DNA from: a virus | Lineage: Monodnaviria; Loebvirae; Hofneiviricota; Faserviricetes; Tubulavirales; Inoviridae | Length of the DNA stretch: 8,626 nt | Direction: 5' to 3' (one strand) | Virus record (IMG/VR): IMGVR_UViG_2663762939_000001 | Span: 1-8,626 of that record | Shown here: positions 1-8,626 of the stretch, in pieces | Numbering within the stretch: position 1 is the stretch's first letter | How the letters are laid out: each line of letters begins with the position of its first letter | Made by a program: the position numbers and the translations under genes | Notes under the pieces: model-generated | The model's input: only the letters and a program-made list of their open reading frames with translations | Told to the model about the DNA's origin: nothing | Databases searched by the model: none

Positions 1-15
1 TACATTATGCGCACC
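1..15 (-). other. Partial dif-like XerC/XerD recombination site (XerC arm plus first 4 nt of central region), truncated by the window edge
   Basis: Reverse complement of 1-15 is GGTGCGCATAATGTA, identical to the E. coli dif XerC-binding arm GGTGCGCATAA plus TGTA of the central region (dif = GGTGCGCATAA-TGTATA-TTATGTTAAAT). The rest of the site would lie beyond position 1. Confidence 0.6.
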
Positions 16-395
16 AATGGTAAGGATGGCAGAATCTGGCGGGAATCGTTGACACTTGGCGTCAACTGGCTACTATCGATAGTGATTCAAAATCATCCGT
101 TTCTCCAAACGAATCAGAATCAAATGTCTGTCAGCAGTAAGTGAACGGCCTGACCTCACCAATCAGGCCTGTTCATCCAGTTGCAGTTGGTAAATCTGTA
201 CCTGATACATGAAACCTTCCCCAGAAATACAGCCACAATGTCAGATAAGATGAACGCTGCCGCGCCGAATCAGCTATAACGCTCAAAATGAAAACTGTAC
301 GGCTTGGCCAACCCCGGACAGCAACAAAACGAGTTTTGTCACTGACCGGAGTTTACGATAACTTCGTAAGCATTAAATTTTAGCGGCTAAAAAGT

Positions 396-644
396 TCACC
401 ACCACCATGCAAACGGCTTGTTACTGACAGGAAATGCGATACCGTCAGCATCACGACCACGCAAGACCTGATTAAGAAGCTTTCTGACTTCACGGCGCTC
501 TGGCCGGGTCATCATCATATTGCGATACCAGGACGGTGATTTATCAAACCACCTAGAACAACTGGTAAAATGTGAACCAACACGACGGTAAGACTTCATG
601 CGACCACCGGGAAGTCGATCGCGCACCCTGCTTTTTACAGACAT
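396..644 (-). CDS. Hypothetical small basic protein (82 aa, Arg/Lys/Trp-rich), function unknown
   Basis: ATG at 644..642 preceded on the minus strand by AGAGG and a 6-nt spacer (plus 645-656). The protein is strongly basic with no motif I recognise. It sits between gIV and the dif-like end. Confidence 0.4.
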   Translation of the reverse strand: MSVKSRVRDRLPGGRMKSYRRVGSHFTSCSRWFDKSPSWYRNMMMTRPERREVRKLLNQVLRGRDADGIAFPVSNKPFAWWW

Positions 645-794
645 AAAAAACCTCTAATTAATTGAATCACCTAGAAGATGTCTTTCTGTTCATATCCTGT
701 CAGTTTTAAGGCCATATAGAGGCTCCGTGGTGAAACGTAAAATCCGGCTCTTGATGTGGCCATACCGGGGCTTAACGCACCCGCCACGGCCCCA

Positions 795-2060
795 TCAAAG
801 CGTGCGAATAATATGAGCGGTCAGCAGAACATACATAATGCGTTGCTCATTACTGTCAGCTTTACTCCTGAAAAGCCAGCCAATCACCGGAATTTTACTG
901 ATAAACGGTACAGAACGGTCAGCATTGCTGGATGATGAATCAATCAGCCCACCAAGTAAGAGCGTCTGGCCATCCTTAATCTGAACTGTTGTCTGTATCT
1001 GACGCTGGTTCGTAATAATATCAGATGCCTGGTCATCGTTGCTGATGGAATCAGCGCGGGTATCAATAGTAAGTACAAGCTGGCCGTTCCCCATAACAAC
1101 AGGCGTCACCTTCAAAGATACGCCAACATCATGACGTTCAATGGTCTGAAACGGATTATTTACCCCGGCAGATTCACCCGTAACTTTACCCGTGATAAAG
1201 GGTACATTTTTACCAACAGAAATATAGCCTGTCTGACCAGACTGGGTAAGAATCCGGGGCGTTGAAATCACCTTAGACCGGGAGTTACTCTGCACCGCAC
1301 GCAGGGATACGGCCAGAACATTACCATCAAAAATGCCAAAAGAGCCGCCGGCAGTCGACAATGCGCTACCCAATGCTGAAGTATTAAAGCCCCCTGCTAC
1401 TTTATGCCCGGATGCAGAACCGGCTGCAAACGACAAATCAACACCATCCGACAGACTGGTTTCAAACATCAGCGACTGAATCAATACTTGGTCACGGGCA
1501 ACATCCACAGAATTGATAAAATCGGACAGAACCGGCAGCAGCTCGTCAGGAGCAGAAACAATCAGCGAGTTATTACCTGGATAATCCACGACATTACCAC
1601 CGCCATTAGAATCAAGATAAATTTTAACCAGTTGCTGAACATCGGACGATCTAACTTTTGTCAGCTTAAAATTTCTGACCGTAAGCGCCACAGGTACTGG
1701 CTGGTAAGATGGCTCAGAAGGAAAAGTATCATAAGACTGGTTATCAGAATCATCGGAACCCGAAACCATCTGCGAAGGTAATTTAGACGGCAAAGAGACT
1801 ACCGCAGGATTGCCAGAAAGCATGACAAACCCGTTAGCATTCAGAACAGACTTAAAGAAATCATCAATATTTGTTGGATTAACATCAGCATTAAATACGG
1901 TTACATTTCCTTTAACATCAGGATTAACAATAACAGGCTTGCCAGTTTTTGAAGAATACCACTGAACAAATGAGCGAACAGATGAATTATTTAAATTAAC
2001 AGTTTCAGCAGAAACGCAGAATGAACAGGCAAATAAAAAAGCAACAATAACAGAGCGCAT
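795..2060 (-). CDS. Secretin, filamentous phage export channel (pIV-like, GspD/PulD secretin family)
   Basis: The C-terminal region (…GGLIDSSSSNADRSVPFISKIPVIGWLFRSKADSNEQ…) resembles a secretin domain. An internal ATG at 2060 gives a signal-peptide-like N-terminus (MRSVIVAFLFACSFCVSA) with AGGAG about 10 nt upstream. The ORF extends to an ATG at 2153, but that start would overlap gI by about 86 nt. Last gene of the Ff-like order. Confidence 0.8.
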   Translation of the reverse strand: MRSVIVAFLFACSFCVSAETVNLNNSSVRSFVQWYSSKTGKPVIVNPDVKGNVTVFNADVNPTNIDDFFKSVLNANGFVMLSGNPAVVSLPSKLPSQMVSGSDDSDNQSYDTFPSEPSYQPVPVALTVRNFKLTKVRSSDVQQLVKIYLDSNGGGNVVDYPGNNSLIVSAPDELLPVLSDFINSVDVARDQVLIQSLMFETSLSDGVDLSFAAGSASGHKVAGGFNTSALGSALSTAGGSFGIFDGNVLAVSLRAVQSNSRSKVISTPRILTQSGQTGYISVGKNVPFITGKVTGESAGVNNPFQTIERHDVGVSLKVTPVVMGNGQLVLTIDTRADSISNDDQASDIITNQRQIQTTVQIKDGQTLLLGGLIDSSSSNADRSVPFISKIPVIGWLFRSKADSNEQRIMYVLLTAHIIRTL

Positions 2061-2067
2061 AATAATA

Positions 2068-3162
2068 TTACTCCTGACAGGTAACAGTCTGTAAATAACG
2101 GCCTTTTCTAATAACAATACGACAGGCATCTTTAATATCAACGAAATAACCATCTTTAATCAAATCAAAATACTGATATTTCATACCTTTAGCATCAACA
2201 AACGTAACGGAAACGTCAAAGCCAAGTTGTGAAAAAGAATTAATAGAAAGTCGGGGTAAGTCACTGGACGAATCAGGCGTTACCGCCCTCGCCTGTTCAG
2301 CATAAGCAGATTTAATAGCTGAGATTTCATCAACATTCTTTCCAGACTGGAGCCAGAAACCAAGCCCAAGCCCCAGCGCCAAAAAAGAAAGCATTAATAT
2401 AAGACGGTTCGATTTGCGAAAATAAATTTTAGTGAGGCGCATATAATAATTAAATCCTCTGTGAACAGAAAATTGACCGTGCGTGATAAATGGTGGTAAA
2501 AGCGAAAATGCGCCATGAGGATAATTATCTGTGAACGCTTGTTTGGTATTGTAAGCAGAATAAAGAGATTTTCCTGTATATATCCATTTATCAACAGTGA
2601 TTGAATTAACATTATCACCATATTTGACAATGCCAAAGTGTACCTTTGGTAAAGAAAATCGAGCCCCTGAAACCAAATTCATAATGGAGCCAACAAAAGG
2701 AATGTTTAATTTATCTGAACGGCGACAATAAACAACATGCTCAGCAAGCGCCAGACGAGCTTGCTTATCCATTATCGAAATATCCTGAATCAAAAATATA
2801 ATATCCCAGCCTAATTTTCTGGCATGTAAAAACCAGTCAATAACAGGTTGTCTGTCTTTATCACCCCATGAGCGGGAATTAAACCAAGTACCACATTCAT
2901 CAAGTACAAGGAGGCCATTACGGGATTCATCGTAAGATGTATTCCCAATACCAATAGCAAGTAAATCATTTAATGAAGGCTTGTCAGGAACGCGAATAAC
3001 GCGCGTTTTTTTCGCATAACGCCCAACCATAGGCATATTATGCAATTTAAGGTCAAGATTAGTGGCAACAGGACAACCCTTAGCAAGTCTTTCCTGTATT
3101 CTGGAAACACTAACAAGTGTCTTGCCTGAGCCTAATTTGCCTGTTACTACATGAACCGCCAT
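2068..3162 (-). CDS. Zot-like assembly ATPase (pI-like, zonula occludens toxin family)
   Basis: N-terminal Walker A motif GKLGSGKT (residues 8-15), a single hydrophobic TM segment (LILMLSFLALGLGLGFWL) and a C-terminal periplasmic-type domain. Size 364 aa and position between gVI and gIV fit pI/Zot. Confidence 0.8.
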   Translation of the reverse strand: MAVHVVTGKLGSGKTLVSVSRIQERLAKGCPVATNLDLKLHNMPMVGRYAKKTRVIRVPDKPSLNDLLAIGIGNTSYDESRNGLLVLDECGTWFNSRSWGDKDRQPVIDWFLHARKLGWDIIFLIQDISIMDKQARLALAEHVVYCRRSDKLNIPFVGSIMNLVSGARFSLPKVHFGIVKYGDNVNSITVDKWIYTGKSLYSAYNTKQAFTDNYPHGAFSLLPPFITHGQFSVHRGFNYYMRLTKIYFRKSNRLILMLSFLALGLGLGFWLQSGKNVDEISAIKSAYAEQARAVTPDSSSDLPRLSINSFSQLGFDVSVTFVDAKGMKYQYFDLIKDGYFVDIKDACRIVIRKGRYLQTVTCQE

Positions 3163-3504
3163 TTAAATCACCCTGTTTGCATAATCAAGAAATTTTTGTT
3201 TTAAATCGAAAACAAAAACACTGATACGAGTAACCATAATAACGTTAACACACGCCTGAAAATGGTCAGGCAATACAGATGCCATTAAATGAGAAAAATC
3301 AGCGGGTAACCCGTTATACATGACCTCAGCAAGATACTGCATTAAAAGCGTAACAGTTGTTGTAATTAGCGCGACCAATGCAACCGCTATTAAACCTGTT
3401 TTGGTTGCAAGCCGAGCTAAAAAACTTGCAACATAGCCAATAAGCAAAGGAACAAGACCAATAAGAAAACGCAACAATGCAGGAATACCTAATAATAAAG
3501 GCAT
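3163..3504 (-). CDS. Minor coat protein, pVI-like (hydrophobic, about 113 aa)
   Basis: Highly hydrophobic protein lying between gIII and gI, as in Ff phages. The ATG at 3504 shares a base with the gIII stop (TGATG) and has GGTGG upstream. A GTG at 3507 is an alternative start. Confidence 0.55.
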   Translation of the reverse strand: MPLLLGIPALLRFLIGLVPLLIGYVASFLARLATKTGLIAVALVALITTTVTLLMQYLAEVMYNGLPADFSHLMASVLPDHFQACVNVIMVTRISVFVFDLKQKFLDYANRVI

Positions 3505-4748
3505 CACTCACCACCTTTACGAAGCAATGAAGTTAAAGAAGTAAAGACATACCAGAACGTAAGGCAATAAAAAACCCATGAAAGAGCATCTTTAATAGTC
3601 AGCAATTTATCGCAACCAATATCAATCTGATAAACCTCTCCGGGAAAAATGATAAAATCAGAACAACCATTACCATTAGGTAAATTGGGCAACATAGCAC
3701 CTTTATTTAAGAAAGCCTCCCATAACGCACCATGAGAATCCTTTGCAATTCCTAATTCAGATTCAGCTAAAGTGGAAGCGCTATCTAATTCAGAATCCCC
3801 CTTCCCATAACGGGAATCACCGCCAGAAGGATCAGCAAAACGTCCGGCTCCGCGAGTAAGGTTATTTATAGCGTCACCAAGACGATTTATATTATTTTTA
3901 GTCTGTTCATCAGCCGACTTTTTATCATCAGATGAGGTGTCTTTTTCTGTTAACTTATCATGAATCTCACTGGCAATTTTAGGTGAAGCACCTTCGATAG
4001 CTGACTGAATATCTCCTTTGGTAATACTTGAGTCATTACCACCGCCAGAACCGCCGCCTGAGTTACCACCGCCTGTATCACCTCCTCCAGTATCACCACC
4101 CCCCGTATCCCCGCCTCCAGTATCACTGCCATCGCCAGCAGGAGAAGAAGGCTTATCTGAAGGATCGGCTACGGTTCCGGTAGGCTTCCATGTCGCAGCA
4201 CAAACAGTGCCATCATTCTGGCAAACAATGACGCCAGTGGCCTCATATTCACAACCGTTATAATAAATATAACGATCACCGTCATAAGAATAGACATTAT
4301 TGAATACACCTTCTTCGGGTGGTTTAGCTTCACAAATCTCTTCAGGCGTAGGCTCGGAAGGTTTTTCATCAGGAATAGATCGTTGAATATCACCTATAAT
4401 ATAAGCGGTTAAAGTCCAGTATTTATCTTTCTGGCCTGGAGAGTCGCTGTAAGTACAAGCGTCAGAAAACACAAGACGGAATTCAGAGTTAGGCCATACT
4501 CCCTCATAAGTTGGTTTAACCTGAGTAAAAACACCCTGAGCACTGTCTTTAGCACCCTGACAAGCAGAAGCCTGCATCGCTGCATCAATATAATAAACAG
4601 TTTGTTTAGCGCCATCTTGGTTGGTTATTTGCTTACTTTCAGCATATGCAGAGCTTTGAAAAGTAGATTTAGTAATGCTTTCCCATGAATCAGCATATGA
4701 AAAAGAAGAAATAAGAATAGCGGAAATGATTAATATATTCCTTTTCAT
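3504..4748 (-). CDS. Adsorption / minor coat protein, pIII-like, with signal peptide and Gly-rich linker
   Basis: Signal-peptide-like N-terminus ([19 protein letters not shown]), Cys-containing N-terminal domains, a (GGGDT)n/GGGS linker at residues ~205-239 and a hydrophobic C-terminal anchor ([15 protein letters not shown]). Follows gVIII as gIII does in Ff phages. Confidence 0.75.
4032..4136 (-). repeat. Tandem 15-nt codon repeat encoding the Gly-rich (GGGDT)x4[12 protein letters not shown] linker inside gIII
   Basis: Direct periodic repeats are visible in the DNA (…ccgcctccagtatcaccacc… units) and in the translation. The plus-strand Pro-rich ORF 4018-4263 is its antisense shadow. Confidence 0.7.
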
Positions 4749-4766
4749 AATAACCCGCTTTAATAA

Positions 4767-4784
4767 AGGGGCACGAATGCCCCT
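4767..4784 (-). terminator. Hairpin between gVIII and gIII (candidate intrinsic terminator/attenuator)
   Basis: Inverted repeat AGGGGCA / TGCCCCT (4767-4773 and 4778-4784) with a 4-nt loop, followed on the coding (minus) strand by a T-rich tract. It sits where Ff phages have a rho-independent terminator after gene VIII. Confidence 0.45.
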
Positions 4785-4793
4785 AAGTGAATT

Positions 4794-5036
4794 TTAAACT
4801 GCTTTGGAAGCGAATTTTTTAAAAATACGAATGGCAAGGCCTGCACCAACCACAGCAACAACGACAGGCCATACTTTACCAATAAGATCATTTGCCTGAG
4901 TCAGCAATGCATCCATTGCCTGACCTGCATAATCAGTCCCGCCTGTAGTTCCATCAGCCGCAAAAGAACTGGCAGAAACAAAAAGAGCTGTTGAAGCTAC
5001 TGCAATTTTAGATTTAACAAAAGACAAAACTTTCAT
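4794..5036 (-). CDS. Major coat protein, pVIII-like
   Basis: 80-aa precursor with a signal peptide (…VSASSFA|ADGTT), an acidic mature N-terminus, a hydrophobic core (VWPVVVAVVGAGLAIRIF) and a basic C-terminus (KKFASKAV). GGAG lies upstream of the ATG at 5036. Confidence 0.8.
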   Translation of the reverse strand: MKVLSFVKSKIAVASTALFVSASSFAADGTTGGTDYAGQAMDALLTQANDLIGKVWPVVVAVVGAGLAIRIFKKFASKAV

Positions 5037-5055
5037 ATAAATAACTCCATTAAGG

Positions 5056-5151
5056 TTACATTAAGCGGTCAGAAAATGATTTAAATGAACCGACCGCATA
5101 GAAAAGGGCAAAACCGAAGGTATAAGCCCCGAAAAAATAAGCTATATACAT
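5056..5151 (-). CDS. Small hydrophobic virion protein, pIX-like (31 aa)
   Basis: Hand translation of the minus strand gives MYIAYFFGAYTFGFALFYAVGSFKSFSDRLM. The ATG overlaps the stop of the upstream small ORF (TAATG). Size and position between gV and gVIII match Ff gVII/gIX. Not in the supplied ORF track because it is too short. Confidence 0.45.
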   Translation of the reverse strand: MYIAYFFGAYTFGFALFYAVGSFKSFSDRLM

Positions 5152-5237
5152 TAACGAAAAACCCCCGCAGTAATTGCGCCGAGGCCAAAAGAGATAACAA
5201 TGCCTGACGCTATTAATATTTGTATAACATCAGCCAT
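5151..5237 (-). CDS. Small hydrophobic virion protein, pVII-like (28 aa)
   Basis: Hand translation gives MADVIQILIASGIVISFGLGAITAGVFR. It starts 2 nt after the gV-like stop and is coupled to the next small ORF through a TAATG overlap. Confidence 0.45.
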   Translation of the reverse strand: MADVIQILIASGIVISFGLGAITAGVFR

Positions 5238-5239
5238 AT

Positions 5240-5557
5240 TTAACCTTTTATTTCAGTGATTCCACCATCAGATGAAATGTTATAAGTTACCCCCTCCCTA
5301 CCTTCCATTGACCATACACGAACATAAACGGGGATCTGAACTAACTTTCCGATAAAGCTGTTAGCCTGATTCATTACACCGGAATTCACCAAAGCTTGTG
5401 ACACACGAATAATAATCTGGTCTTGCTTGGTACCACCAAAGCCATCAGGGGTCTCTAAGCCAATACCAATTTCATTATAATAACCCTGCCCATTAATTTT
5501 ATTACGCTGACGAGCACCAAGCATCTTACCTTTCACGAAAAGACCATAATTAGACAT
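5240..5557 (-). CDS. Putative ssDNA-binding protein (gV-like), assigned by position
   Basis: 105-aa protein directly downstream of the replication initiator, with a strong RBS (AGGAGA, 5-nt spacer). The assignment rests on synteny and size, not on a recognised motif. Confidence 0.5.
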   Translation of the reverse strand: MSNYGLFVKGKMLGARQRNKINGQGYYNEIGIGLETPDGFGGTKQDQIIIRVSQALVNSGVMNQANSFIGKLVQIPVYVRVWSMEGREGVTYNISSDGGITEIKG

Positions 5558-5568
5558 ATCACTCTCCT

Positions 5569-6633
5569 TTAGTGCCAGCTACTGGCATGTGAAATACGGT
5601 TGTAATCGAAAATTAAACCTTTCTCATAAACCCATGATGGAATTTTGGCTGGTTTAGCCTCAAGTGTTCTTACTAATGGAACAATATTATTTGAATCAGG
5701 GGATTCACAATAAAAATTAATATCTATCCCAAAAGACAGTAATTCTTTACGATGCCTGTAAAATGTTGGCTTTGGAAGCATTTCTTTCATATTTGCGCCC
5801 TGCTTCCATAACAAATATGTAGACTGTATTTTTCTTGGGAGATTAATTATCTTTTCATCAGTTAATATAGTATTTTGATTCATTTCTATTCTCCCTACAT
5901 AGTCAGAGAATACTTTATTAGGCGTCTCAATATTCCAGTTTTTACCAAGCGTAAGATTCAAATCAATTAATTCGGTTGTTCTTAATGTTAATTCAATACG
6001 TAATTTATCTTTTGACCAATCCAGTAAACCAGCGTTAACAAATTCATCTGCTATCTGGTGCCCTTTTTTTCCAGATGTATGCTCATCATATTTAGAGTAA
6101 AATTTCAGGCTCCAACGACGGGAGTTTTTTCCCAAATAGACCGTTCCCCCTTTGCCACAGGCGCGACCATGACGAGTTTTTGCTTTAAACTCTGCGGCAT
6201 AAAGCCATGCCCGCACATTTTCCAATGTTGATAATGAATACATGTAATTAATATCAACACGGGAAATCTTATATTGCCCTGTCATTACCTGACGATAGGA
6301 CGGAAGGTCATGGGGAATATGAAGTAATGCCAGTATTCTCGCGTAAGCTGTCAATACCAGTCCTTGCAAATCGTCGGAACCAATAACCGAATGTCCCTGA
6401 AGAAATTTTGACGGATTACCATCAATATAAAGATGTGTTGCCCGGCCTTCGCCATCGGATCCAACTGATCTTACTTTCATTGTAGATTCGTACGAACCGC
6501 GAACAGTCAACCGTTTTACTGTTTCCCACTCCACTGCACCATCAGCATCAACGCTGACGACACTACCAGCCGGTAACGGTTGGTGCGTGCAAGGCAGGAT
6601 TCCAGTAAACCAGTCGATCATAAGTAGCCACAC
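5569..6633 (-). CDS. Rolling-circle replication initiation protein (gII / RstA-like)
   Basis: 354-aa protein at the head of the minus-strand module, resembling phage/plasmid replication initiators. The track start at 6633 is GTG; the first ATG is at 6621 (MIDWFTG…), so the exact start is uncertain. Confidence 0.75.
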   Translation of the reverse strand: MWLLMIDWFTGILPCTHQPLPAGSVVSVDADGAVEWETVKRLTVRGSYESTMKVRSVGSDGEGRATHLYIDGNPSKFLQGHSVIGSDDLQGLVLTAYARILALLHIPHDLPSYRQVMTGQYKISRVDINYMYSLSTLENVRAWLYAAEFKAKTRHGRACGKGGTVYLGKNSRRWSLKFYSKYDEHTSGKKGHQIADEFVNAGLLDWSKDKLRIELTLRTTELIDLNLTLGKNWNIETPNKVFSDYVGRIEMNQNTILTDEKIINLPRKIQSTYLLWKQGANMKEMLPKPTFYRHRKELLSFGIDINFYCESPDSNNIVPLVRTLEAKPAKIPSWVYEKGLIFDYNRISHASSWH

Positions 6634-6792
6634 CCATCAAAATATGTGTCAATAGTCATTTGTGAGCAAATTGAGTGGTCACAATGTAATATGCTCAGAT
6701 CTGACAGTCAATACATTTGCAATGTTTAAATTGTCAGAAATGAGCATCAAATCTAACTATTGAAAAACCACTGTTAAGATGGAGCCAAGTAG
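6634..6792. promoter_or_regulatory. Divergent intergenic control region between gII (minus) and the HTH regulator (plus), with operator-like inverted repeats
   Basis: Imperfect inverted repeat 6691-6707 (atgctcagatctgacag) and 6731-6747 (ttgtcagaaatgagcat), 14 of 17 matching, with a perfect 10-bp palindrome tcagatctga at 6695-6704. Also TTGTGA-N13-TCACAA at 6660-6684. A possible leftward promoter is -35 TTGCTC (plus 6664-6669) and -10 CATATT (plus 6641-6646). GGAG at 6781-6784 precedes the regulator ATG. Confidence 0.5.
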
Positions 6793-7239
6793 ATGGGCAA
6801 CAATGAGCATGATGATATGGCGGACAAGCAGAGAGCAGAACGTATCAAAAAGGTAATTCTGGAAAACTCGACTTATGAAGAACTGGCCGAGAAAACCGGT
6901 ATTAGCGTTAGCACACTGGTCAGAATAGCGTCCGGCAAAACTGAGCCTAAATTCAGTGACATAATTCAGATAGCTAAAATTACGGGTGCAGACTTGAACA
7001 CCCTTGCTTATGGCTATGCTATTGATGTTAAAGAAGAAGCTACTGAAAGGAAGTTAATCACTTCCGCAGACGGTTACACTGATGAAGAAACCACTAACGC
7101 CCACAATTTCATTGTGTGGAACATCAGAACACTGAATAAACAAGATATTCTGGCTCTCTCAAGGCAAGTTTCTGCATTAAGTTCATATACTTACAGTACG
7201 AAAATGTTTATGAAAAAAGTAGTGTCAGGCGAAGATTAA
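6793..7239 (+). CDS. HTH (XRE/Cro-C1 type) transcriptional regulator, candidate phage repressor
   Basis: The N-terminal region (…TYEELAEKTGISVSTLVRIASGKTEPKFSDIIQIAKITGADLNTLAYG) resembles a helix-turn-helix XRE domain, followed by a C-terminal extension of about 70 aa. It is transcribed divergently from gII, like RstR in CTXphi. Confidence 0.75.
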   Translation: MGNNEHDDMADKQRAERIKKVILENSTYEELAEKTGISVSTLVRIASGKTEPKFSDIIQIAKITGADLNTLAYGYAIDVKEEATERKLITSADGYTDEETTNAHNFIVWNIRTLNKQDILALSRQVSALSSYTYSTKMFMKKVVSGED

Positions 7240-7249
7240 AGGGTTTAGC

Positions 7250-7296
7250 AGTCTCAGGAATGAGACTAACGTGCAGTATTACCAACACTGCACGTT
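7250..7296 (+). terminator. Two tandem hairpins downstream of the regulator gene (candidate terminator/attenuator)
   Basis: Stem 7250-7256 / 7261-7267 (agtctca / tgagact) with a 4-nt loop, then stem 7268-7277 / 7287-7296 (aacgtgcagt / actgcacgtt) with a 9-nt loop, followed by cTTTATT. Confidence 0.4.
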
Positions 7297-7338
7297 CTTT
7301 ATTGTGTGAATTTTGAACAGTGAAAAAGGATCAAAAGG

Positions 7339-7761
7339 ATGAGTAGAAATAACGAAACAAGCGGCGTTGAACTGGTTGTCGTGGGCGTATTTGCTTTCTG
7401 TCTGGCAGTTGTTGCCTGGCTAATGAAAACTTTCGATGTTGAATGGCAAACAGCACTGGAAACTGCGCCTGGCCTGATAGTCTGGCTGCTTGTTGTCGGT
7501 GCGGGGATCTTTTTCGGGATCAAAATGGAAACTGGCCTTATTCGCTGGGGTGCTCCACTGGCGATCGCCCTTCTGATTCCGGTATTCAAGCCAATTCTTA
7601 AGGAAGCTGCCGGAGTTCGTGAAACGGGTGGGCTGGTTTTCGATGATATGGTTTCGTGGTATGGAACTGGCTGGGGAATGTCTCTGATGTTCTTCGGGAT
7701 TCTTATTGTCGGATATGGCCTGCTTTATTGGTGGCACAGAAGAAATTCATATTACTGGTAA
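7339..7761 (+). CDS. Small integral membrane protein (140 aa, about 4 predicted TM helices), function unknown
   Basis: Four hydrophobic segments (about residues 10-28, 44-62, 69-83, 112-131) and a Trp/Tyr-rich C-terminus. AAGGA lies about 9 nt upstream of the ATG. The overlapping minus-strand ORFs are low-complexity antisense shadows. Confidence 0.65.
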   Translation: MSRNNETSGVELVVVGVFAFCLAVVAWLMKTFDVEWQTALETAPGLIVWLLVVGAGIFFGIKMETGLIRWGAPLAIALLIPVFKPILKEAAGVRETGGLVFDDMVSWYGTGWGMSLMFFGILIVGYGLLYWWHRRNSYYW

Positions 7762-7789
7762 TCAATAAAACGTAGAAGAGAGGAAACAT

Positions 7790-8065
7790 ATGAAACTGAA
7801 TCCTGAGAAATACAATAGAAACATCACCCTGCTATGTCCTGTGTGCGGAAATACAGAGATGGAACACGAGGAAGAGTCTGAAGTCGTCAGATGTGTAGGC
7901 TGCGGGAAAGAATTTACTAATGATGAATTAATCCAAGAAAACGGGGTGAGTATTGACGCCCATGTAGATGAAATAAAAGAAGAGTTAACAAAAGACATTC
8001 AAAAACAGTTTGGTGACATGCTCAAAAAGGCATTTAAGGGAAGTAAGAATATAAGGATCAAATAA
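7790..8065 (+). CDS. Small zinc-ribbon protein (91 aa; CPVCG…CVGCG), function unknown
   Basis: Two CxxC pairs (C16/C19 and C35/C38) form a putative zinc ribbon, followed by a charged helical tail. Strong RBS (AGAGAGGAAACAT-ATG). The stop overlaps the next gene's start (TAATG). Confidence 0.65.
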   Translation: MKLNPEKYNRNITLLCPVCGNTEMEHEEESEVVRCVGCGKEFTNDELIQENGVSIDAHVDEIKEELTKDIQKQFGDMLKKAFKGSKNIRIK

Positions 8066-8544
8066 TGACAACAAGTGATGCCATCGCTTTAGCTGCGCTT
8101 GTAGTATCGATTTACACTATCATATCGTCAGAAATGAAATCGAGAAAAAGCGATAGAGAACAAAGGGTTATAAAGGATGAGCAAGACAGGTTACGTAAGT
8201 TGCTTCTGGAAAAAGAAACAAAGTCAGCAATTAATGAGATGAAAGCTGAGCTTGGTGCTCGCCTCGTAAAAATAGCCAAAAACAACTATAGGCTCAAGAT
8301 ATTTAATAGAGGGAGGGTTGAGGCTAAAAATATAGAGATTCATTTCCCTGATAACGATGGAAATGAATATCTTTCAATGCATGATGTAGAAGATAAATTT
8401 CCATATGAGGTATTACACCCGCAACATGGGATTGAAATTTTAGCGGGAATAAGCTTTGGAAGTAAAACTAAATACCGAATAAAACTCATATGGGATGACA
8501 ATTATAAAAGAAGAAATGAAGAGGAGTTTTTCATTTCTATATAA
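8065..8544 (+). CDS. N-terminally membrane-anchored protein (159 aa) with charged helical linker and beta-rich C-terminal domain, function unknown
   Basis: N-terminal hydrophobic helix (AIALAALVVSIYTIISS), a Lys/Glu-rich predicted coiled region, then a C-terminal domain. AAGGA RBS with 7-nt spacer. Translationally coupled to the zinc-ribbon gene. Confidence 0.65.
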   Translation: MTTSDAIALAALVVSIYTIISSEMKSRKSDREQRVIKDEQDRLRKLLLEKETKSAINEMKAELGARLVKIAKNNYRLKIFNRGRVEAKNIEIHFPDNDGNEYLSMHDVEDKFPYEVLHPQHGIEILAGISFGSKTKYRIKLIWDDNYKRRNEEEFFISI

Positions 8545-8574
8545 ATTGGTTCGCACAATGACGTTATGCTAAAG

Positions 8575-8612
8575 AGGCCGCTGCGGGATTCGATTTTCGC
8601 AGCGGCCTTTTC
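8575..8612 (+). terminator. GC-rich hairpin plus T-tract (candidate intrinsic terminator), core of a longer imperfect palindrome
   Basis: Stem AGGCCGCTGCG (8575-8585) / CGCAGCGGCCT (8598-8608), 12-nt loop, followed by TTTT (8608-8611). The arms extend imperfectly to 8562-8585 / 8598-8621, 21 of 24 matching. Confidence 0.5.
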
Positions 8613-8626
8613 AACATAACGAGTCG

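Follow-up and report, generated by a model that had tools for sequence, protein, structure and literature searches.

What is the long imperfect palindrome at the right end of this stretch of filamentous-phage DNA (here called the window: 8,626 nucleotides [nt], positions 1 to 8,626 of the IMG/VR record IMGVR_UViG_2663762939_000001, family Inoviridae), and what would the phage use it for? An earlier note on the sequence had placed the palindrome at 8548-8626, seen in it sequences resembling the XerC and XerD arms of the dif site, and likened it to the forked-hairpin attachment site of CTXPhi-type phages, with a bidirectional terminator or a packaging/origin hairpin as alternatives. Our analysis indicates that the element is very probably a CTXPhi-type single-strand phage attachment site (attP), belonging to a temperate inovirus that integrates at dif by means of its host's XerC and XerD recombinases and encodes no recombinase of its own. 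Judged by its sequence, the element is already known, being identical to the published site of YpfPhi and CUS-1Phi; the small addition made here is that the IKe-like UPPhi group appears to share the YpfPhi attP hairpin.

Of the 24 positions in each half of the palindrome, 8562-8585 (CGTTATGCTAAAGAGGCCGCTGCG) and 8598-8621 (CGCAGCGGCCTTTTCAACATAACG), 21 (88%) can pair, with a 12-nt loop (GGATTCGATTTT) between the halves, just as the earlier note had described. Its reading of the dif-like arms also held, with 9 of 11 positions matching the XerD arm at 8609-8619 on the minus strand and 9 of 11 matching each arm at 8548-8574 on the plus strand, where the spacer is 5 nt. The interval 8548-8626 does lie within the element but does not contain all of it, since the element runs over the window ends into positions 1-15 (1-18 if three flanking pairs are included). 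With the ends joined, the minus strand reads GGTGCGCATAA (XerC arm)-TGTACGACTCG (11-nt spacer)-TTATGTTGAAA (XerD arm), then AGGCCGCTGCG (clamp)-AAAATCGAATCC (loop)-CGCAGCGGCCT (clamp), and finally CTTTAGCATAA (XerD-arm partner)-CGTCA (5-nt spacer)-TTGTGCGAACC (XerC-arm partner).

The joined reading, GGTGCGCATAA-N11-TTATGTTGAAA, had been proposed as what the minus strand would show if the ends met, and this junction was directly seen in the tandem prophages of relatives. In Escherichia coli SCPM-O-B-12142, two tandem prophage copies lie beside hipA, and window positions 8546-8626 run directly into position 1 onward, with 100% identity across the junction; the central region of the site is likewise contiguous with window positions 1-4 in a tandem prophage (L001, 2494-2504). 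The Yersinia pestis array has the same inter-copy junction, and several viral contigs carry the site twice, 7 to 8.7 kb apart or at both contig ends. The window ends thus appear to be contiguous, a conclusion drawn for a linear record from relatives that are ca. 91% identical to it.

Within the joined element, there are two dif-like sites in inverted orientation, site 1 crossing the junction on the minus strand and site 2 occupying 8548-8574 of the plus strand. The XerC-binding arm of site 1 (GGTGCGCATAA, 5-15, minus strand) is identical to the XerC arm of E. coli dif at all 11 positions, pairs with 8548-8558 in the fold, and would supply the hairpin's 5' outer stem on the presumed packaged strand. 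It is followed by an 11-nt central region, of which the first four nucleotides, TGTA (1-4, minus strand), equal the first four of the dif central region TGTATA, while the remainder, CGACTCG (8620-8626, minus strand), is mostly bulge or internal loop, with only the final CG pairing with 8562-8563. The XerD-binding arm of site 1 (TTATGTTGAAA, 8609-8619, minus strand; 9 of 11 to the dif XerD arm) has 8564-8574 as its partner, with two G.T wobbles and one A.C mismatch. Site 2 is made up of a XerC-arm-like sequence (GGTTCGCACAA, 8548-8558, plus strand; 9 of 11), which supplies the 3' outer stem opposite the XerC arm of site 1; a 5-nt central region, TGACG (8559-8563, plus strand), which is the short side of an asymmetric internal loop; and a XerD-arm-like sequence (TTATGCTAAAG, 8564-8574, plus strand; 9 of 11), the minus-strand partner of the XerD arm of site 1. 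The central regions of both sites are therefore non-canonical, 11 and 5 nt rather than 6 bp. The apex (8575-8608) consists of a G+C-rich clamp, 8575-8585 paired with 8598-8608, and the 12-nt loop at 8586-8597; this clamp would nucleate the hairpin and is a possible stem for a bidirectional terminator.

Folding across the junction, as the earlier note had proposed, gave a predicted 94-nt hairpin on single-stranded DNA of the minus strand (-31.2 kcal/mol; z score, -7.5), against -29.1 kcal/mol (z score, -6.8) for the predicted plus-strand fold. The attP hairpin is the most stable 120-nt fold in the whole genome, for which the mean was -9.9 (standard deviation, 4.1). The XerC arms pair by nine Watson-Crick pairs and one G.T, and the XerD arms by eight Watson-Crick pairs and two G.T among 11 positions. 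Where pairing departs from Watson-Crick, the minus strand has G.T wobbles in most cases, most of which would become A.C mismatches on the plus strand. In the central region, the spacer begins with TG, paired to CA, and ends with CG, paired to CG; the seven bases between them are bulged opposite one base. The whole is a simple unbranched stem-loop, so that of the proposed forked-hairpin attP of CTXPhi type, the type was borne out (by the inverted sites, the fold, the prophage junctions and the covariation described below), but the fork was not.

How readily might such arms arise by chance? Taken singly, they are near what chance would give: 11-mers with two or fewer mismatches to the dif arms numbered 4 against 2.0 expected and 12 against 7.1 expected. 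For the composite arrangement (a XerC-like arm, 4 to 12 nt, and a XerD-like arm), the circularised window contained two instances, both in the hairpin, with an expectation of 0.004, and none of 1,000 dinucleotide shuffles yielded two composite sites. No further composite dif-like site with a spacer of 4 to 12 nt was found in the circularised window beyond the two of the hairpin, with their spacers of 11 and 5 nt.

The comparison with known attP sites led to YpfPhi. Window positions 8544-8626 (83 nt) are 100% identical to the attP of YpfPhi in both copies of the Y. pestis NCTC5923 array (L005, 1026-1108 and 9768-9850), window 1-212 is 97% identical there, and the inter-copy junction of the array is the same as the joined window ends. 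The inverted XerC/XerD pair of YpfPhi has been published (PMC4266046, and passages of PMC3089051 that cite Val et al. 2005): in a review of YpfPhi, the encapsidated genome is said to have a potential inverted XerC/XerD site pair and may act like CTXPhi, insertion rebuilds dif, two to four copies lie in tandem, and the inter-copy junction is an imperfect dif (PMC4266046). Reviews of the CTXPhi field list YpfPhi and CUS-1Phi, the latter from E. coli O18:K1:H7, as relatives of CTXPhi, with attP features that fit single-strand integration (PMC4246890, PMC3089051, PMC3442271). The text of the UPPhi paper (PMC7307601) contains no occurrence of "attP," "hairpin" or "inverted"; it mentions just a dif copy at the genome start and a 15-base repeat. 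YpfPhi and CUS-1Phi integrate at dif, leaving a rebuilt dif alongside, and occur in tandem arrays, as do the relatives of the window phage. The backbones differ, YpfPhi sharing with the window only genes II and V (ca. 89%), the regulator region, and positions 1-212 with the hairpin, while the structural genes of the window are IKe-like. Megablast gave no similarity between the morphogenesis genes of YpfPhi and those of the window phage, and the UPPhi paper reports <20% identity for these genes (PMC7307601).

Where, then, does the crossover fall? In the E. coli relatives, the junction on the hipA side reads host GGTGCGCATAA, TGTA, CGACTCG and TTATGTTGAAA, and the far-side junction runs from phage ...CCATTGGTGCGCATAA into TGTATATTATGTTAAAT (TGTATA plus TTATGTTAAAT), a canonical dif. 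In these genomes and in Y. pestis, the crossover falls within the shared GGTGCGCATAA-TGTA, and this interval is where XerC cleaves dif in Xer recombination. In Y. pestis NCTC5923 (L005, 987-1108 versus 9712-9850), attL has the host arm GGTGCACATAA and the inter-copy junction the phage arm GGTGCGCATAA, and this difference between host and phage arms confines the crossover to the interval 3' of arm position 6 but 5' of CGACTCG. The XerC cleavage and exchange point would thus lie between window positions 5 and 4, and the junction products are those expected if the site 1 strand were cut after the XerC arm and joined to dif. Use of a plus-strand hairpin would put GGTTCGCACAA next to TGTATA, which was not seen in the junctions of the relatives. 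In other prophage junctions, this phage spacer is preceded by AGTGCGCATAA, AGTACGCATAA or GATGCGCATAA, which are presumably host arms from other species.

A different substrate could be imagined for the same products. Site 1 in the double-stranded replicative form (GGTGCGCATAA-N11-TTATGTTGAAA) might recombine with dif in the manner of VGJPhi, with site 2 being incidental. In its favor, site 1 has a XerC arm that matches perfectly and a central region homologous to dif over 4 nt, the prophage junctions do not discriminate between a single- and a double-stranded substrate, and YpfPhi, when superinfecting, reportedly enters at the "imperfect dif" junction that separates copies already in residence (PMC4266046). 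We nevertheless regard this explanation as improbable. A spacer of 11 bp is far from the 6-bp central region of dif (PMC3089051), the composite scan (4 to 12 nt) found sites with other spacer lengths nowhere else in the genome, and site 2, for which the double-stranded model has no need, accompanies most distinct site 1 sequences and covaries with them. A VGJPhi-type double-stranded site was rejected on the grounds of spacer length and the conserved partner site.

The evidence on site 2 comes from the breadth of related viral sequences. We scanned IMG/VR for CGCATAATGT-N7-9-TTATGTNGA and obtained 83 loci, mainly on contigs of inovirus size; a credible inverted partner was found for 59 of the 64 distinct site 1 sequences with a candidate partner. 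In these 59 variants, the top spacers were 10 to 12 nt and the bottom spacers 5 to 6 nt in all, with total lengths from 69 to 156 nt. Site 1 was on the strand with more open reading frame (ORF) length in 72 of 78 viral contigs. By anchored counting, compensatory changes were seen at XerC arm positions 1 to 4 (G-C, A-T, C-G; T-A, C-G; G-C, T-A), at XerD arm positions 7 (T-A, A-T) and 10 (A-T, G-C), and beyond the XerD arm at stem positions 12 (A-T, G-C) and 14; the apical clamp was also kept by compensatory changes, for example from GGCCGCTGCG to GCCCCGGTGG.

A covariance model (R1) was built from the enterobacterial hairpins. Each hairpin also gave a match on its opposite strand, with roughly half the score; the hits of the model were re-aligned, and removal of opposite-strand rows and duplicates left 56 distinct sequences. 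In this alignment, which was fitted to the structure of the model and whose figures lean towards that structure, standard pairs filled 95.5% of cells (28 to 52% in slid controls; 83.5 ± 0.4% in column shuffles), and 23 of 37 pairs had changed on both sides (3 to 12 in slid controls; 14.1 ± 1.7 in column shuffles, with a maximum of 20). RNAalifold on a plain MAFFT alignment recovered the outer XerC stem alone, MAFFT having shifted the variants with 6-nt spacers in register, and this shift was the reason for adopting anchored counting and the covariance-model alignment. No Rfam family matched at the gathering threshold.

One pair stood apart in this collection. At XerD-arm position 8 (minus-strand G at 8612 opposite T), a G.T wobble is present in 53 of the 56 distinct variants and a Watson-Crick pair in one; the top strand always departs from dif (G for A) and the bottom strand retains the dif base. 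The CTXPhi arms TTATGTTGAGG and TTATGTTACGG yield the same wobble. This G.T may be a device specific to the single strand, for instance one that tunes XerD binding or keeps the duplex prophage copy inert. The covariance model also matched, at 36 to 40 bits, two Pseudomonas loci (L011, 8302-8392; L013, 8450-8542) situated ca. 1.5 kb upstream of a gene II homologue (45% identical product). These loci had been brought in by the gene II homologue and not by the dif pattern, and because the model matches them, the hairpin design seems to extend beyond Enterobacterales. In one viral contig (L090, 4423-4510), unrelated sequence takes over after site 1 and the first (5') half of the G+C stem, and the best partner candidate pairs poorly; this attachment site seems to have been truncated or rearranged.

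Put together as a mechanism, site 1 in the circular single-stranded DNA would fold back on the complement of site 2 (8548-8574), so that the stem would present duplex XerC and XerD arms, with an asymmetric central region of 11 nt opposite 5 and the 11-bp G+C clamp on top. XerC would cut the hairpin and dif alike after GGTGCGCATAA, TGTA of the phage would pair with the dif central region, and one strand pair would be exchanged, leaving a pseudo-Holliday junction that replication would turn into a prophage. One flank of the prophage would then have the host XerC arm, the phage spacer and the XerD arm, and the other the phage XerC arm followed by TGTATA-TTATGTTAAAT, that is, a rebuilt functional dif. 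Integration should be irreversible by Xer because neither double-stranded site has a usable spacer, and progeny would be made by rolling-circle replication from tandem copies. A single-stranded DNA substrate, catalysis by XerC only and resolution by replication are the parts of this scheme that we infer.

Some points weigh against reading the element as a single-strand attP of the CTXPhi type. The sequences of the prophage junctions would be identical if double-stranded site 1 were the substrate, and the review of YpfPhi itself terms the mechanism "proposed" (PMC4266046). To these are to be added the lean of the covariation figures and the linearity of the record, both mentioned above. Others concern the likeness to CTXPhi, the attP of which is ca. 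150 nt long with a branched apex and a bottom spacer of 7 nt, while that of the window is 94 nt and unbranched, with a bottom spacer of 5 nt. Furthermore, covariance model R1 gave no match at the CTXPhi attP (L102, 3001-3150), the best scores in that locus being ca. 12 bits and lying elsewhere in it. Hairpin variants of 150 to 156 nt are present in other viral contigs, and the forked apex is a trait of CTXPhi, not of the mechanism.

The hairpin is also placed where a transcription terminator might be expected. As a terminator with no other function, it would stop the converging plus-strand accessory operon (which ends at 8544) and the minus-strand genes (gene IV and ORF 396-644). It begins 18 nt past the stop of ORF 8065-8544, and its 11-bp G+C stem leads into TTTTC on one strand (plus) and TCTTT on the other (minus). 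Moreover, E. coli plasmids and a chromosomal island retain, immediately behind cargo genes, a remnant that lacks the site 1 XerC arm, although the plasmid copies, lying next to the same MacB/TolC locus, may stem from a single insertion passed on by descent. Against this, a consensus scan of 7700-8626 reported no terminator, the loop is 12 nt and the T run short, and termination as the sole function leaves unexplained the exact XerC arm, the TGTA homology, the conserved 11/5-nt asymmetry and the position of the junctions. We therefore consider it very improbable that the element is a terminator and nothing else, which speaks against the alternative in the form given by the earlier note; as an additional role, termination is plausible, though less likely than not.

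The region next to the hairpin showed several peculiarities of its own. The slot at 7762-8544 (ORFs 7790-8065 and 8065-8544), between the conserved ORF 7339-7761 and attP, differs in gene content among close relatives, and looks like a cargo slot. Including the same slot in the relatives L001, L003, L100 and L101, its contents are variously a 369-amino-acid (aa) hypothetical protein, a 110-aa hypothetical protein, a member of the STM4504/CBY_0614 family, a PD-(D/E)XK nuclease or a SIR2 family protein. With the hairpin as query, we found matches at 475 places on E. coli plasmids; those sampled were ca. 72 nt long and 90 to 93% identical, and comprised site 2, the G+C stem-loop and part of the XerD arm of site 1, without the spacer and XerC arm of site 1. 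On the one plasmid inspected, NZ_CP020934.1 (L100, 2501-2571), an STM4504-family gene immediately precedes the remnant, with an IS200 fragment and a MacB/TolC operon close by, and on chromosome NZ_CP043414.1, beside hipA (L101, 2501-2574), the remnant follows a SIR2 gene and adjoins an ISNCY transposase. The remnants are probably the relic of an integrated phage-derived module.

A broader reading, which we hold to be doubtful, is that the hairpin is the boundary of a swappable module with three roles, namely, attachment site, two-way transcription stop and edge of the cargo slot. If true, it would explain the identity of the hairpin across phages whose virion genes are dissimilar at the nucleotide level, the varied neighbor genes (the names SIR2 and PD-(D/E)XK, by name alone, recur among anti-phage defense genes), and the survival of half a hairpin after a cargo gene on E. 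coli plasmids.

The phage itself is filamentous, with a unit of ca. 8.6 kb that the window contains in full; the record is cut inside the attachment site. The minus strand encodes G2P (5569-6633), G5P (5240-5557), the Gp8 coat protein (4794-5036), G3P (3504-4748), a DUF5455/pVI-like protein (3163-3507), Zot/pI (2068-3162) and the secretin pIV (795-2153); on the plus strand are a repressor-like ORF with a helix-turn-helix (HTH) domain (6793-7239) and accessory ORFs up to 8544, including 7339-7761, 7790-8065 and 8065-8544. No recombinase-like ORF was present among those of the window, where every ORF longer than 200 aa was G2P, G3P, Zot/pI or secretin. The ORFs adjacent to attP (7339-7761, 7790-8065, 8065-8544 and 396-644) had either no Pfam match or weak ones below the curated cutoffs, and none was identifiable as a Xer activator, in a library whose coverage of that family was not checked; Pfam and PADLOC scans of these ORFs gave nothing reliable, the weak sub-cutoff matches of the 91-aa ORF 7790-8065 being zinc-ribbon-like.

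Among deposited phages, megablast of the whole window matched solely gene IV of IKe and PEar phages (80%), and the hairpin itself was unmatched in this collection, even in the distant mode; it was from genomes of E. coli, those in GTDB, and IMG/VR that the identification was drawn. Twelve complete E. coli genomes have a prophage that spans 80% or more of the window with ca. 90% identity; in the prophages of Y. pestis and Klebsiella spallanzanii, what is shared is limited to the hairpin, window 1-212, the regulator region, and genes II and V. With virion genes of IKe type and genes II and V like those of YpfPhi, the window phage is a mosaic that matches the published UPPhi group (PMC7307601). 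The UPPhi paper delimited prophage units by a 15-base dif-derived repeat (PMC7307601). The window starts with this repeat (TACATTATGCGCACC) and ends just short of where its next copy would start.

The strand of site 1 is the coding strand of genes II, V, VIII, III, VI, I and IV. In Inoviridae, the viral strand has the sense of the mRNA, and since the core genes are on the minus strand, we infer that this is the packaged strand. Could the hairpin then serve packaging, or the synthesis of the complementary strand? A packaging signal or minus-strand origin would be a duplex left uncoated by the single-strand-binding protein, at which assembly or complementary-strand synthesis starts. The element is the most stable hairpin of the genome and is located in a non-core region between genes IV and II, and the packaging signal of Ff is an imperfect hairpin in the intergenic region between these two genes. 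However, a separate strong hairpin at ca. 745-800 holds the canonical Ff/IKe position after gene IV, and the attP is 100% identical in YpfPhi and in the IKe-like window phage, despite the undetectable similarity of their assembly genes, which would be odd for a signal recognised by assembly proteins. For these two reasons, we rejected this alternative, also raised in the earlier note, as most unlikely.

The hairpin at ca. 745-800 is the second-best independent one of the genome (ca. -22 to -25 kcal/mol in 120-nt windows); it is on the minus strand directly after the gene IV stop at 795, the position of the packaging signal and gene IV terminator of Ff and IKe. On the other side of attP, window 1-212, next to the XerC arm of site 1, is 95 to 97% identical in the prophages of Y. 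pestis, K. spallanzanii and E. coli, though the neighboring genes differ, and contains an inverted repeat (48-53/61-66, GTTGAC-N7-GTCAAC). Because it travels with genes II and V, this region may hold the plus-strand origin nicked by G2P. If it does, the origin is just upstream of attP, as is needed to regenerate the junction from tandem copies.

In terms of consequences, annotation of this record should take its two ends together. UPPhi-like phages should share the lifestyle of CTXPhi, with integration that Xer does not reverse and progeny made from tandem copies, because theirs is the attP hairpin put forward for YpfPhi and CUS-1Phi. For mutational studies of the way in which XerCD recognises a folded single strand, the 56 to 59 natural variants of the hairpin could serve as a guide. 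The current understanding of the mechanism is unchanged by these results.

To put the element into perspective, it can be set beside the dif-integrating systems already described. The attP1 of CTXPhi is AGTGCGTATTA-TGTGGCGCGGCA-TTATGTTGAGG, with a 12-nt spacer, attP2 is AATGCGTATTA-TACGCCA-TTATGTTACGG (7 nt), and the dif1 site of Vibrio cholerae is AGTGCGTATTA-TGTATG-TTATGTTAAAT (PMC3089051). Integration of CTXPhi involves catalysis by XerC only and a single strand exchange, and the resulting pseudo-Holliday junction is resolved by replication, making the process irreversible (PMC3089051). Both phages have two inverted dif-like sites with non-canonical spacers (12/7 in CTXPhi; 11/5 in the window), a site 1 XerC arm identical to that of the host dif, and homology to dif limited to the first 3 to 4 nt of the central region (TGT in CTXPhi; TGTA in the window). 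When the 150-nt CTXPhi region was folded, the first two central nucleotides, TG, were paired and followed by a bulge on the 5' side, with a XerC stem and a XerD stem, as in the window, and the G.T at XerD-arm position 8 is common to both. The gene order (accessory genes, attP, reverse-oriented repressor, replication gene), the absence of a phage recombinase and the tandem prophages are also the same. The arms of the window, by contrast, match E. coli dif and not V. cholerae dif1, and the sequence shared with CTXPhi comprises short motifs alone, such as TTATGTTGA in the XerD arm of site 1. Given that the covariance model misses the CTXPhi site, the likeness is one of architecture, not of detectable sequence homology.

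VGJPhi and TLCPhi represent further types of filamentous phage or satellite that likewise exploit XerCD at dif. The former has one double-stranded dif-like site of 29 bp (PMC4246890), where the window has two inverted sites. In TLCPhi, recombination begins with catalysis by XerD and there is an activator, XafT (PMC4246890; bioRxiv 2026.06.12.731946); among the differences of the window is the presence of a XerD arm. The mechanism of CTXPhi is experimentally proven, while that of the window is predicted from its sequence and fold.

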